62,963 nucleotides of DNA, filler included, from Reclinomonas americana ATCC 50394 (GCA_048213135.1; 12 parts of 12 records of this genome joined end to end with filler, not necessarily neighbours in it); one strand, 5' to 3'; shown: positions 725 to 52,025, numbered from the whole stretch's first letter. The notes: generated by a model from the sequence alone, not told the origin. Numbers and translations: made by a program.

Positions 725-3700
725 TTAATCACCGCCCTCCTCGCCGCCCTCACCACCCTCAGCCGTCGATGACACCTCCTGCTTGCCTGGCTTCTCCTTC
801 TTCGAGATACCCGAGGCGATTTCGTCAATGCGCAGCAGCATGCATGCCGACTAACAAAGAGAGGGTGGTGAGCATTTACAAAGACAGCAGTGGAAAGTAA
901 TGTCGGTGCAACCAGACCTCAATTGCCGTCTTGAATGTCTGCACCTTGACCGCCATTGGGTCCCATACTTGCAACTCCTTCATGTCGGTCACTGTGCCCT
1001 TGATGCCGTCAATGCCCCATGTTGAGTTTTGACCGCCGGCGTGCTTGGCCTGCACGAAAGGAAAAGGTGAGCATCACATCACCAACTCACTTCTACTTGG
1101 TCTACAACATACCCTCAGTTCCGTGACCGCGCGCACCACATCGGCACCGCAGTTTTGTGCGAGCGTGCGCGGAATCACCTCGAGCGCCACCGCCACCTGG
1201 CGGAAGGCCCACTGCTCGGTGCCCTCGACGGTCGACGCACGGCTCTGCAGCTCCACAGACACCGCCATCTCCAGAGCGCCACCACCCGGCACAATGCGCG
1301 GGTCGGTGACCAAGTTGCGCGCCACGCCCATGGCGTCGTGCAAGTTGCGCTCCATCTCATTCAGCACATCCTTTGAGGGGCCGCGCAGCAGAATCGAGCA
1401 GGCCTTCGGGTCGACGCACTCCTCGAAGAAGGTGAAGTACCTGCACCACACAGGATCAGCAATGGCACACATGCAAACACTCCTCCCGCAAAGTGAAACG
1501 AAACTCGTCGCCAATCTTGCGCACGGAGAACAGTTTGCAGCCAGTGCCCACATCGCTCTCCTGCAGCTCCGAGGTGCGGCTGACAATCGTCGCACCGCAG
1601 ACGCGGGCAATGCGGTTGTTGTCCGTCTTGCGCAGACGTCTGATGCACGACACGTTGTGCTTGAACAGAATGTGAGCCGCCAGATCTGTGTAAAAAAGAG
1701 AGTCAGTATGGACACTAAAAAGAATGCGCAGAGGATTACGACGCACCAGCAATGCCCTTCTCGGTGACGACCACGTCGGGCTTGAAGCGCAAAATGTCGG
1801 AGCAAGCCTGCTCAATAAACTCTTCCTCCAGCTTCAGCAGCTTCTCAAAGTCCTCCTCGTTGGTGAGCTCCACATTCAGCTGTGACTCGGCCTTCTTGTA
1901 CTCCAGCGGGCAATCGAGAAGAATGATGCGCGGGTTGTGAATCTCTCGTCGTGAACGCGCGTGGATAATGTCCTTGTTGCACATGGTGCCGTTCAGCACG
2001 CGGCTGTCGGTGATCTCGCCGCCGGGGATCTATATGCATGAGTGTGGGGTGAGAAGACGAGAGAGAGAGAGAATGGAGAGACGTGCTTGCTATTGAGTGC
2101 TCACCTTCTCCACCTTGGCGAAACGCTTAATGTCGATCTCACGACGTCCGTCCACATCGCGGGTGACGGTCTTGACGGCCTGCAGAGCCAGACGCGTCAA
2201 CAGGTCGCCCTGGCGGCCGGTGATCTTGGTGCCCAGGCACGAGTTGAGCACTTTCAGCATCTCCTCCGTGTTCGACACTGGATCGTGCGTGAGACTCAAC
2301 AAAACACCTCCATCGCCCACACACACAAAGCAGACAAACCGTCGAGCGGGATGGAGAAGCCCTCGACCAACTCGCAAATGTGGTCCAGCGCATGCGAGAA
2401 GCCGCGCACAATCACCGTCGGGTGGATGTTGCGGAGCAGCAGTGGGTCGGCCACCGACATGACCTCACCAGCTGCAGAGGGGGGAGTGAGTAAGGGAGAG
2501 GGACGGAGGGAGGGAGGAGAGGGAGAGGGAGTGAGGGAGAGAGGCAAAGAGGGAGGGAGGGAGGGAGGGAGAGGGAGAGGGAGAGAGGAGAGGGAGAGGA
2601 GAGGAGAGGGAGAGGGAGAGGGAGAGGGAGAGGGAGAGGGAGGGGAGGGAGGGGAGGGGAGGGGAGGGAGGAAGGGAGGGAGGGAAGAGGAAGAGGAGGG
2701 AGGGAAGAGGAAGAGGGAGAGGGGAGAGGGAGTGAGGGAGAGAGGCAAAGAGGAGAGAGGGAGGAGAGAGAGGGAAGGAAGAGCTCAAGATCGTATGAGA
2801 TTGTGCATGTGTGTGCGCGCGTGTGTGAGAGAGGGTGTGTGCATGTGTGTGCGTGCGTGCTTGCTCACCGAGCACAATGACCGAGGTGGTGCCGTCGCCG
2901 ACTTCCTCATCCTGCGCGCGGCTGAGCTCAATCATGCTCTTGGCGGCCGGGTGCTGCACGTCAATCTCACGCAGAATGGCGTTGCCGTCGTTGGTCAGCA
3001 CAATGCCACCCATGGCATCGAGCACCATCTTGAGCATGGCCGACGGTCTGCGGAAACAAACACCCAAGAGGTGGAAAAGTATGAGGAAATGCTCAGACAC
3101 AAAGTCGCGTGGAGGTGGTGGAGGGAGGAGGAGTAACGCACCCGAGCACAGTGCGAACCACATCGGCAATCACCTGTAAACGAGAACGTGCGCGTGTGAG
3201 TTGTCTCTTGTCGAGGCATGCAGATGACCGACCAAAAAACACACAACACCCCTCCCTCTTTGCCACGCACGCACACACGAGAGAAGAGGAGGTCAATGAG
3301 AGAAAGAGCATGCGATTGTGTGCACTGCGTGTGATGCGCGTGAGAGAGTGAGTGCGTGGGAAAGAGTGAGTGGCAAAGTTAAACAGCCTTTGTGTACAAC
3401 TGACTTGTCAACATGCGCGCTTGGGAGATGCATGCAACGCCAACACGACTGACAGTGTCCACCAGTGCACACAACACAGCTCGCTCATGCACAAGCAAAG
3501 GACAAGAGAGAGACGCACAAAGAGAGAGAGCGCGCGCGCGCAAAGACATGTCTCTGCCTTACACTCCTCGATGCCTACCTTTGCGGCGGTGATGTTGCCG
3601 AGCTGCGCCTTGCGACCCTTCTCGCGTTTTGTGCTCGTGTCTGCACGCACACACAGAGAGAAGGAGCGCGCGTGTGTGAGTGAGCATGGCCGCACTTGTC

Positions 3701-3790
3701 ATCACACAAACGCAAACACACGCGCACGCGTGCACAACGCAAAACGGGCGAGACGCAACTGAGCACCAACATTTGCTGACCGCCCATCAT
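725..3790 (-). CDS. CCT3: T-complex protein 1 subunit gamma (CCT3), about 10 introns
   Basis: Spliced exons give [154 protein letters not shown] at 727-725. Confidence 0.96.
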
Positions 3791-49900: not shown

Positions 49901-52025
49901 TGCCGATGATCTTGACGATGTCGACAGCGACGACGACGATGATGCTGAGCAGCTGCAGCCCGATGATGGCGAGGAAGCGGCGTCGGCAGAATTCGAGTCT
50001 GTTGACGATGCGGCGGCAAAAGCAATGGACACCCTCCTGGACGAGCTTGAGCTGATTGTCGGCGGCAGTGACGATGAAGTCGACGCTGGCGACGAGCCGG
50101 GAGAGTACCCGCAGCCGAACATGTCGGCAGACGACTTCTGGCCCGCAGAAGACCTGCCAGTCGACGGCAGCAACATCGAGCTTGCCGACTTTCGCATGCA
50201 GGCGGCCGAGCAGACGCATGCCGGCAAGAGAATCAACTCAGTGACCGCGCCACGCTGCGTGAACGAGCGGCGGCCGAGAACCAAGTCCGTCGGCGACTAC
50301 ATCAGACTGTCAAAGGGTTTGCCAGCGCTGCGCTTTCTTGCTGTGCACCTTTCTCGTGTTGCTGACTCTCTAGTGACATGCATGAACGAGTAGCAAGAGC
50401 GATGAAGGCCCTGGAGGAGGTGTTCGGCAGCCCGGCATTCTACCACTTGATGCATCCCGCTCTTCATCGGTGGTGGACACGTCTCGGAAAGTTCATGAAG
50501 GAGCTGACGGCCTACTCTCTCAAGCGCGACCGTCTCCGCCAACTCGCTGCCGACGCCGATCGCTTGTTCACCGATTGGGTGGCACTCGGCAAGAACAGTT
50601 GAGTGCGATCTGGCGCGCGCGCGCACGCGCCACTGTGCATTCTCCTGTGCACCACGTGTGGGCGTGGTCGCTAATATTTGCTTGTGCTTCTCTCTCCTTG
50701 TCTGTGCACACACAGTGAACGTGCCCTACTGCATGCACGAGATCGTGCATTTTGTGGAGAGTGCCATTCAGTTTGGCCCTCCTGCTGGCGTCGCTTGCTG
50801 GATGGCGGAGAGCGCCTACGGCCAGATATGTCGCAACATCGCAGCGACTCGCGTGCCCGAGAAGACCATGGTGCGGAGAGTGTGCACTGCGTACGCCGCC
50901 GTCTTGATGTCCTACTCGCCCACAATTCCCGGACGAATCCACGCATTCTTGGAACGCGATGGCGCGAACATCGACAAGCAGCTCGTGGCAACACTCTCTT
51001 CCATCCTCCACCCGGCGCTCAACATGACGCGAGCGTTGGCGTGGAGCTCTGCTGAGCGCGCTGCTGCTGCATTTGCGGCGGCCAATCAGGCTTGCCTCCC
51101 ACAGTTCGCCACGGACTTTGGATCATACCAACAGCTTCACCTCCACCTGCGACACGAGCGGCCACAAACTGGCCTTGTGGCCAAGATTACTGCCGAGTAC
51201 ATCAGGGGCGCCGACGGCGGCGGTGCCGGAGGATGTGTGCCACTCGAGGTGTTTCGCACACATGCACGTTTGAGCGAAAACAAGCTGCGTCTCTCGCACG
51301 AAGACGTCGACGGCGCCGGTGACGAGCTCGGTGCCGCGGGCGCTTCGTCGGAGATGCGCTACCTGCAGAAGATCGTCGGTGCCCACTCCGAGTACATTGT
51401 GCGACGCTTCCGTGCTGACGCTGACAACGTGCAGCAGCTGGTCGACACAGCTGCACTACTCAGGGCCACGAAACGCCCCGCCGCCGCCGCCGCCGCCGCC
51501 ATGGTACCGGCACCGCCGTTGGCCATCGGCCAGGGTCTCCAGGTGATCACCGTGCGGAGTCTACGGATCAAGCGTGCAGCCAGTCACGGATGCGGCACCG
51601 TGTTTTCCGACGCAACTCTGGAGACCAGCCTACACGTCGAGGTGGCTTCTCAACCACAGCTGCGCATTCAGCTGGCGCCCGTTGCCGCAGATCAAGCTGG
51701 CGCCGCGGCCGCGCCTGCACAAGAGGACTTGGCGGACTCAGTGTCGGTGGCCCGACTCTCCAGCAACTCCTCAGTGATGGCGCTGAATCCGCGCACCGGC
51801 TGTGTGGAGCCTGCCATCATTCAACGCATCCTCCTCATCCCGCTTCGCTGTGAGGAGCAGGAATCAGGCTCCGAGACCGACCACTTGTCGGATTTCGTCG
51901 GCAAGTGGCTCCCTCTGCTGCCCACGTCGTGCTGCGTCGTTCCGGTCGCGTATGGAACGTCCCACGCGAAGACCAAGACGTATTTGTGCAACGTGGTCAT
52001 CCAGGTGGACTTCCTTGCGAGCGCC
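46757..52025 (+). CDS. CACTA/EnSpm (CMC superfamily) DDE transposase, about 10 introns, 3' end truncated
   Basis: CPSC..CPQC zinc knuckle, MADGERW, IAIALSADGVCPF (D at 48786), YSCW, IIQGKPSTLNGFMRPLIDQL, LLACLADGRAR, NGCGYC, YDPIRSHPPDTMH (D at 49737), MHEIVHFVESAIQFGPPAGVACWMAESAYG (E at 50808). Confidence 0.88.

Follow-up and report, generated by a model that had tools for sequence, protein, structure and literature searches.

What marks the 5′ end of an intron when the last base of the exon before it is not G? This question is raised by a 62,963-nucleotide stretch of DNA from Reclinomonas americana ATCC 50394 (GCA_048213135.1; hereafter the window), in which an initial annotation, made from the sequence alone, had listed 28 introns whose 5′ splice sites (donors) read GTTGCGT or a close variant, as if the usual donor block lay one nucleotide further into the intron. 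Our analysis indicates that these displaced donors belong to genuine spliceosomal introns (GT-AG, once GC-AG) and form a second, rule-governed donor class. This class is almost confined to junctions without an exon-final G, and at those it is the usual solution. Donors are named below by their first intron base, with (-) for the minus strand, and a slash marks the exon-intron junction.

Displaced donors in the window

Junctions were set with a local spliced protein-to-genome aligner, which admitted only GT/GC..AG introns and otherwise ignored the donor context, and with Pfam profile coordinates. A donor was classed as displaced when it fitted G(T/C)T-N-(C/A)-G and did not fit G(T/C)T-N-G-(T/C). 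Thirteen of the 53 introns fixed by homology (25%) had displaced donors, and 33 displaced donors were found among the approximately 100 introns of the whole window. Excision of the 13 homology-fixed displaced introns restores a conserved, gapless protein, and the other 20 keep the reading frame continuous. Every intron considered, the 53 fixed by homology as well as the 20 other displaced ones, starts with GT or GC and finishes with AG, as U2-type spliceosomal introns do.

The 53 introns lie in six conserved genes (PSMA6, CCT3, GLB1-like, PIG-M, SepSecS and ELOF1). In the PSMA6-like gene, which holds donors 7940, 8418 and 9134, all three homologs gave an identical 8-exon model, the seven junctions are gapless against 10 homologs, and sliding a junction by one base would alter conserved residues (FSPEG, KKVP/DKLL). 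The CCT3-like gene was resolved into 11 exons by the full-length homolog P0277, and about 20 introns of the GH35 beta-galactosidase gene were derived from 10 homologs. For the PIG-M-like gene the search gave one homolog (P0121), which fixes its displaced donors; the poorly conserved middle of this gene, with a doubtful intron from a single homolog, was left out of the set, as were minority solutions of individual homologs. When an exon of the SepSecS gene was compared with metagenomes, identity was at most 59%, and the loci found serve as protein homologs only; nine usable metagenome open reading frames fix seven introns of this gene, none of which is displaced. Both ELOF1 introns entered the set through Pfam coordinates and not through the aligner. 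Competing in-frame donors were settled by majority at three junctions (15889 versus 15883, 14937 versus 14955/14925, and 18997 versus 19006), and all of these candidates are of the normal type.

The window is eukaryotic nuclear DNA of about 57% G+C, in which genes are dense and introns are numerous and short (median length about 65 bases in the homology-fixed set), with 7-20 introns in each conserved gene. The best protein matches of its genes show 55-75% identity and belong to eukaryotes from scattered groups, such as Pharyngomonas, Sphaerothecum, Baffinella and green algae. It contains 22 runs of 44 N, which are paired, at 6183-6282, 14370, 22906, 28727, 39305, 42970, 52026, 53602, 55147, 58510 and 61546; the two runs of a pair are separated by 12 bases, which in the single pair inspected form a spacer of the TTAATTAATTAA type with stops in all frames. 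With these runs the window looks like a chain of 12 pieces, so that gene models crossing a spacer, such as a parser intron at 43344-42962, are untrustworthy. None of the introns discussed here spans a spacer.

A gene parser was also run, whose donor model started from GT = 0 and GC = -3 and learned from its own parses only, over six rounds. It called 81 introns, with GTTGCGT as the top donor heptamer (15 introns), and recovered 19 of the 28 donors of the initial annotation. Earlier parser versions, which merged genes and found 4 of the 28, were superseded by this version and then by homology. Several normal donors were misplaced by the parser within GT repeats, and its errors at normal sites were 8641 for 8635, 9393 for 9387, 13666 for 13684 and 15874 for 15883/15889, with acceptor 7283 called for 7259; its normal-class donors were therefore kept out of the statistics.

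All 28 motifs of the initial annotation were found where it had placed them and on the strand it had named. As donors, 12 of them were confirmed by protein homology or Pfam, including 7940, 8418, 9134, 1504(-), 3759(-), 11486(-), 11306(-), 11036(-), 16748, 17729 and 13684. The remaining 16 are placed by reading frame; their introns are short (mostly 63-88 bases) and end in good acceptors, and there is partial Pfam support for 5877(-), 7196, 25600 and 27296. Five displaced donors were added: 10865(-) (GTTACGT) and 18705 (GTTGCGC), which are homology-fixed, and 41441(-), 42151(-) and 34571, which come from the parser only.

Mis-tracing of junctions by a base or a codon, or a T inserted by assembly error, could create an apparent displacement, and 20 of the 33 displaced donors were indeed placed by frames or by a self-trained parser that had misplaced normal donors in GT repeats. 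The other 13, however, were fixed by homology under the sole constraint of GT/GC..AG, and a one-base slide there changes conserved residues; moreover, random T insertions would not follow the last exon base, as the displaced donors do. We give an artefact almost no credence.

The motif GTTGCGT occurs 28 times on both strands, compared to 11.6 expected under a second-order Markov model. On the sense strand of gene spans, 19 of 20 copies are donors and the remaining one is intronic; sense exons contain no copy. Three further copies are antisense and five are unassigned. Copies were seen just upstream of the start codons of CCT3 (3829-3835, -), the NACHT gene (29269-29275, +) and the transporter gene (23105-23111, +), where they could be donors of introns in 5′ untranslated regions.

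The 33 displaced introns are as follows, each with its donor, its gene and the basis of the junction.

1441..1504 (-): GTTTCGT, CCT3-like gene; six of seven homologs, and Cpn60_TCP1 profile 321, split codon plus residue 1, 324
3641..3759 (-): GTTGCGT, CCT3-like gene, first intron; spliced alignment of P0277, one of seven homologs and the only one reaching the N-terminus
5810..5877 (-): GTTGCGT, Asterix (PAT complex) gene; frame continuity, downstream exon matching ASTER profile 46-92 from its first residue
7196..7259 (+): GTTCCGT, PH-domain gene; PH profile 1-35 then 40-104, a loop junction precise to about 2 residues only
7940..8111 (+): GTTGCGT, PSMA6-like gene, phase 0; three of three homologs, gapless at ISI/FSPEG against 10 homologs
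8418..8493 (+): GTTGCGT, PSMA6-like gene; three of three homologs, gapless against 10, downstream exon starting at Proteasome profile position 28/29
9134..9207 (+): GTTGCGT, PSMA6-like gene; three of three homologs, Proteasome profile 105, split codon plus residue 1, 108
10805..10865 (-): GTTACGT, PIG-M-like gene, absent from the initial annotation; P0121, and Mannosyl_trans profile 32, split codon, 34
10975..11036 (-): GTTGCGT, PIG-M-like gene; P0121 (one of one homolog)
11189..11306 (-): GTTGCGT, PIG-M-like gene; P0121 (one of one)
11419..11486 (-): GTTGCGT, PIG-M-like gene; P0121 (one of one), gapless at the junction
11691..11858 (+): GTTGCGT, NUFIP1/CCCH zinc-finger gene; frame continuity and parser
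12607..12669 (+): GTTGCGT, NUFIP1/CCCH zinc-finger gene; 63-base intron joining open frames of 354 and 90 codons, parser
12877..12940 (+): GTTGCGT, NUFIP1/CCCH zinc-finger gene; frames and parser
13341..13405 (+): GTTGCGT with G at -1, NUFIP1/CCCH zinc-finger gene; frame continuity with ends checked, parser taking another acceptor
13684..13749 (+): GTTGCGC, ELOF1-like gene; Elf1 profile 1-37, split codon at 38, then 39-58, the rival donor 13666 losing 7 profile positions
16748..16806 (+): GCTGCGT (GC donor), GH35 beta-galactosidase gene; eight of 10 homologs
17729..17803 (+): GTTGCGT, beta-galactosidase gene; five of 10 homologs, the rest skipping the preceding 12-codon exon
18705..18769 (+): GTTGCGC, beta-galactosidase gene, absent from the initial annotation; five of 10 homologs
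23787..23998 (+): GTTGAGT, EamA-type transporter gene; parser, frame only
24060..25344 (+): GTTGCGT, transporter gene, 1285 bases of low complexity; frame, split by the parser (introns up to 1000 bases) with a 9-base exon, the weakest of the set
25439..25505 (+): GTTTCGT, transporter gene; parser
25600..26183 (+): GTTACGT, transporter gene; parser, downstream exon matching EamA 92-134 from residue 1
27296..27360 (+): GTTGCGT with G at -1, transporter gene; parser, downstream exon matching EamA 98-134 from residue 2
34571..34899 (+): GTTGCGC, small gene, absent from the initial annotation; parser only
34985..35055 (+): GTTGCGT, same small gene as 34571; parser and frames
41370..41441 (-): GTTGCGT, coiled-coil gene, absent from the initial annotation; parser only
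42056..42151 (-): GTTGCGT, coiled-coil gene, absent from the initial annotation; parser only
43682..43748 (-): GTTGCGA; 67-base intron joining open frames of 176 and 116 codons, missed by the parser
44180..44246 (-): GTTGCGC; 67-base intron joining open frames of 170 and 193 codons, missed by the parser
45146..45223 (-): GTTGCGT; parser and frames
49603..49690 (+): GTTGCGC, Tnp2-type transposase-like gene; 88-base intron joining open frames of 153 and 233 codons, missed by the parser
50598..50715 (+): GTTGAGT, Tnp2-type transposase-like gene; parser

The last exon base and the donor block

Among the homology-fixed introns, the last exon base (-1) is G in none of the 13 displaced donors, compared to 35 of the 40 normal donors (Fisher p = 1e-8). 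Seen from the exon, 13 of the 18 donors without -1 G are displaced, while none of the 35 with -1 G is. Three of the five normal donors without -1 G are the majority-assigned ambiguous junctions, whose alternatives have G; firm normal donors without -1 G therefore number two, compared to 13 displaced ones, and donors of the type H/GTGCGT (H being A, C or T) are rare. Over all 33 displaced donors the -1 base is A in 14, T in 11, C in 6 and G in 2, the two with G being 13341 and 27296, as had been claimed for the original 28.

The positions within the displaced motif are also coupled to each other. With frequencies of 0.34 for T at +3, 0.28 for C at +5 and 0.30 for G at +6 among the 53 introns, the three would be expected together in 1.5 introns if independent, and they occur together in 13 (p = 3e-9). 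Of the refuting conditions set by the initial annotation, the two that concern donor statistics, independence of the motif positions and lack of a link to -1, were not borne out. A composition effect was rejected as the source of the class on this excess and on that of GTTGCGT over the Markov expectation. Normal-register donors with +3 T were also seen (G/GTTCGT, G/GTTTGT and G/GTTCGC), all after G, at 16872 and 17625 (+) and at 14810, 16138 and 2339 (-), which shows that +3 T alone does not define the displaced class.

Normal donors (n = 40) have G at -1 in 35, G at +3 in 27, T, C, A or G at +4 in 15, 12, 10 and 3, G at +5 in 35, and T or C at +6 in 26 and 11. Displaced donors (n = 33) begin with GTT in 32 and with GCT in one, and have G at +4 in 28, C at +5 in 31, G at +6 in all 33, and T or C at +7 in 27 and 5. 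The normal form is G/GT-G-N-G-T and the displaced form H/GT-T-G-C-G-T, with the block T-G-C-G-T one base deeper, and displaced positions +1 to +7 (G-T-T-G-C-G-T) differ from positions -1 to +6 of a strong normal donor (G-G-T-G-C-G-T) at one position. In this alignment normal -1 G (88%) corresponds to displaced +1 G, normal +2 T to displaced +3 T, normal +3 G (68%) to displaced +4 G (85%), normal +5 G (88%) to displaced +6 G, and normal +6 T/C (65/28%) to displaced +7 T/C (85/15%). The displaced class is far stricter than the normal class, as seen at its +4 and +5, whereas normal +4 is mixed. Its rare forms GTTTCGT, GTTACGT and GTTGAGT mirror the normal donors GTTCGT, GTACGT and GTGAGT of the same genes.

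These parallels bear on an explanation without any register effect, in which the displaced motif is a second consensus in the ordinary register (+3U, +4G, +5C, +6G), read by U6, Prp8 or a protein, and is this lineage's version of NN//GURAG, so that the likeness of the two blocks is a coincidence. In its favor, two donor classes with a see-saw between -1 G and the intron block are general according to the available portion of Parker, Fica and Simpson (2025), and the exon side of the displaced donors carries no signal beyond the missing G. However, displaced positions +3 to +7 equal the commonest strong normal block (+2 to +6) at five of five positions, the G that is near-universal at normal +5 is lost at displaced +5, which is precisely what a displacement by one base predicts, and the rare forms run parallel to normal ones within the same genes. 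We consider a coincidence of this kind very unlikely.

Outside the donor, the two classes are alike. The acceptor has C at -3 in 12 of 13 displaced and 38 of 40 normal introns, a branch-like CT(G/C/A)A(C/T) is present in the last 60 bases of 11 of 13 and 37 of 40, respectively, and intron lengths are similar. Two other origins were tried and rejected: introner-like copies, since an all-versus-all comparison of 73 introns gave four non-self matches of 15-17 bases, all of low complexity, and U12-type introns, since the donor /RTATCCTT was found in none of the 33 displaced contexts. The beta-galactosidase gene contains two GC-AG introns, one normal-type at 19539-19637 (+; AAG/GCAAGT) and one displaced at 16748-16806 (+; ACT/GCTGCGT).

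Recognition of the displaced sites

As far as can be judged from sequence, we lean slightly towards the view that displaced sites are read by the machinery of normal junctions, one base further downstream. Whatever reads G-G-U-G-C-G-U at normal junctions would bind the displaced sites in the same way but shifted by one base, and this reader would first of all be the U1 small nuclear RNA (snRNA), with its two adjacent C residues opposite G-1 and G+1. At a displaced site, intron G+1 would pair in the usual place of G-1, the next U would be mismatched or bulged, and full pairing would resume over the remaining bases of the block. Cleavage would be set later by U6 and U5 at the only GU available, and one extra U after this GU would have to be accommodated. 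Because one pair would be lost, displaced sites would allow hardly any change elsewhere in the block, while normal donors, which have G-1, can be degenerate.

The initial annotation had proposed that a shifted or bulged pairing mode is a major donor class in this lineage. The class itself holds, its positions are coupled and the geometry fits; the pairing with U1 and the exon ends do not lend the same support. Several results weigh against a displaced reading by U1. The whole evidence comes from one 63-kb window in several pieces, and 20 of the 33 displaced junctions are placed by frame or parser, compared to 13 by protein homology. With the textbook U1 arm, RNAduplex gave -0.3 to -1.4 kcal/mol for displaced sites in any register, compared to -2.0 to -2.5 kcal/mol for H/GUGCGU and -8.5 to -13.0 kcal/mol for normal sites with -1 G. 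With a hypothetical GC-adapted arm, displaced sites reached -7.0 to -8.3 kcal/mol and H/GUGCGU -9.9 to -10.0 kcal/mol; since H/GUGCGU is better even here, duplex energy alone fails to explain why displaced donors are used over H/GTGCGT. The exon ends of displaced donors had log-likelihoods of -143.8 in the shifted register, -140.2 under background and -183.5 in the same register as normal donors, which rejects the same register but makes the shifted one no better than background. In addition, normal donors favor G at +7 (19 of 40), but nothing comparable is seen at displaced +8. The rarity of H/GTGCGT in spite of its better pairing suggests that pairing of the exon-proximal C of U1 matters beyond nearest-neighbor energy, that a second recognition RNA exists, or that the reader is not U1.

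A search of the 63-kb window with Rfam found no U1, U6 or other snRNA: at the gathering threshold it returned transfer RNA (tRNA) only, and at E <= 1 it returned sub-threshold microRNA-like matches on low-complexity DNA and no snRNA.

The same single U1 might instead bind in a bulged register, in which G+1 and one U pair normally, the other U is flipped out, GCGU pairs as in normal donors and the exon base at -1 is not needed. The number of pairs equals that of the shifted register, the +2/+3 bulge has been validated for human donors according to the available text of Tan et al. (2016, PMC4856993), pairing with U6 would require a bulge anyway, and RNAduplex with the hypothetical GC-adapted arm picks a bulged structure for the -1 G variant. 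On the other hand, with a bulge, the U1 base facing -1 would remain available for pairing and -1 G should help, yet only 2 of 33 displaced donors have it, compared to 35 of 40 normal ones. This argument is a weak one, since the scarcity of -1 G need not be avoidance and could be a matter of entropy: with -1 G, the degenerate normal class, with its much larger sequence space, is available. The bulge also does not explain why displaced donors outnumber H/GTGCGT. We regard the bulged register as unlikely, though deserving of some weight.

A further explanation invokes two recognition RNAs, with a variant U1 or another snRNA, bearing one extra arm base and complementary to GUUGCGU, serving the displaced sites, and a standard RNA serving G/GUGNGU. 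Of the arm types compared, only a hypothetical arm with an extra A made displaced sites (-10.8 kcal/mol) stronger than H/GUGCGU (-7.1 kcal/mol), which would explain why exons without -1 G are usually followed by the displaced form; a dedicated RNA would also explain the near-invariant C and G of the displaced block. Precedents are found in the available portion of a preprint (bioRxiv 2022.06.08.495308), which describes altered U1 arms in Entamoeba and Mastigamoeba and a mixture of standard and modified U1 in Physarum. However, this explanation is purely hypothetical, and the same text reports that Thecamonas and Mamiellales prefer +4 C with a standard U1; a strict consensus thus need not mirror U1, and an altered U1 cannot be read from the consensus alone. 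We find such a second RNA distinctly unlikely. If it existed, the major spliceosome would have two parallel 5′ splice-site systems, a standard one for exons with final G and an extra-base variant of U1 (perhaps also of U6) for a quarter to a third of introns, with the choice made by the last exon base; this larger picture is, in our estimate, just as improbable. The displaced reading by the normal machinery, outlined at the start of this section, remains the one we favor.

Neighboring genes and known donor systems

Other genes and features seen in the window are as follows.

5663-6135 (-): Asterix gene (PAT-complex subunit), small, with two exons, on the opposite strand just after an NSDHL-like gene
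7723-7795 (+): tRNA-Arg(ACG) gene, in the 400-base gap between the PH-domain and proteasome genes
14471-16406 (-): SepSecS gene (O-phosphoseryl-tRNA(Sec) selenium transferase), one exon of which has a Pfam match at E = 3.5e-67; its presence implies that the organism uses selenocysteine
29825-34060 (+): NACHT-type NTPase of 1,400 residues, carrying an extended array of WD40 repeats that closely resemble one another, in one 4.2-kb exon
35952-36956 (+): second WD40-repeat gene, 2 kb downstream of the NACHT gene, with near-identical repeat units
37432-38501 (+): a unit several hundred bases long, present in two direct copies that show up as recurring peptide strings in open reading frames
47013-52073 (+): large intron-interrupted gene with a Transposase_21 (tnp2) match (E = 3.9e-8) and two displaced-type introns, a candidate domesticated or intron-bearing transposase
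52-59 kb: much CT/CA/GT microsatellite-like DNA, which draws spurious microRNA-model matches

The closest known parallels to the displaced donors come from human sites, which are cited here from the portions of the sources that were available. In the shifted-register human donors of Roca and Krainer (2009, via Tan et al. 2016, PMC4856993), pairing of the donor with U1 is displaced by one position and cleavage stays at GU. The displaced donors are similar in that their block matches the normal one but begins one base deeper in the intron. The human sites, however, are a handful of atypical donors with an A-rich block, whereas the donors described here make up approximately 25-33% of the total, carry a G/C block (UGCGU) and are selected according to the base that ends the exon, with U1 pairing that we infer. 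Human donors with a bulge at +2/+3 number 68 predicted sites (54 curated) in 201,541 donors, or about 0.03% (Tan et al. 2016, PMC4856993; Roca et al. 2012 via it). These too are similar, with GUU followed by a block equal to normal +3 to +6, in which either U may bulge, but they are rare in human, compared to 13 of 53 homology-fixed donors of this form here. All validated non-canonical registers together account for 1.5% of human donors (Tan et al. 2016, PMC4856993).

A two-class picture of donors, AG//GUNNN versus NN//GURAG, in which an exon-end G trades against a strong intron block, is given in the available part of Parker, Fica and Simpson (2025). The donors of the window follow this see-saw in that those without exon-end G carry the strong intron block (-1 G in 0 of 13 displaced versus 35 of 40 normal). 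They depart from it in two ways: the block of the exon-independent class is preceded by an additional U, and +5 G is retained in the exon-dependent class (35 of 40).

Lineage-specific donor blocks rich in G and C, such as GUGCGU, link the window to other organisms. The available text of the preprint cited above (bioRxiv 2022.06.08.495308) reports co-evolved U1 arms in Entamoeba (ACAAAC for GUUUGU) and Mastigamoeba (ACGUAC, with donors GUGCGC), and a standard U1 in Mamiellales (GYGCGY donors) and Thecamonas (+4C). All four are described there with one donor consensus, and that portion of the text mentions no displaced second class, unlike what is seen here. Ostreococcus has a strict GTGCG(T/C) donor and an ACTGAC branch, according to the available part of Irimia and Roy (2008, PMC2483917); its donor block is the same as that of the normal class and its branch motif is similar to the CTGAC/CTCAC found here, but Ostreococcus is intron-poor, while conserved genes here have 7-20 introns and the displaced class in addition. 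A literature search, which did not cover supplements, found no description of such a donor class, and queries with motif strings gave primers and unrelated text. Shifted and bulged registers and the two-class see-saw are known; what is new is how frequent the displaced donors are, that their block is of the G/C type, that they depend on -1 in a rule-like way and that the exon-independent class contains an extra U.

Off-register donors have been known from a small fraction of human sites and have been studied one minigene at a time. A free-living organism in which such sites make up at least a quarter of donors under a simple exon-G rule would offer a natural setting in which to address three long-standing questions: how the cleavage site is fixed when U1 binds off-register, how the donor is passed to U6 and U5 with an extra base, and whether snRNA arms co-evolve with donor classes. 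For this genome there is also a practical consequence, which is that gene finders trained on a single donor matrix will mis-annotate approximately every fourth intron; even the self-trained parser recovered only 19 of the 28 donors first listed.

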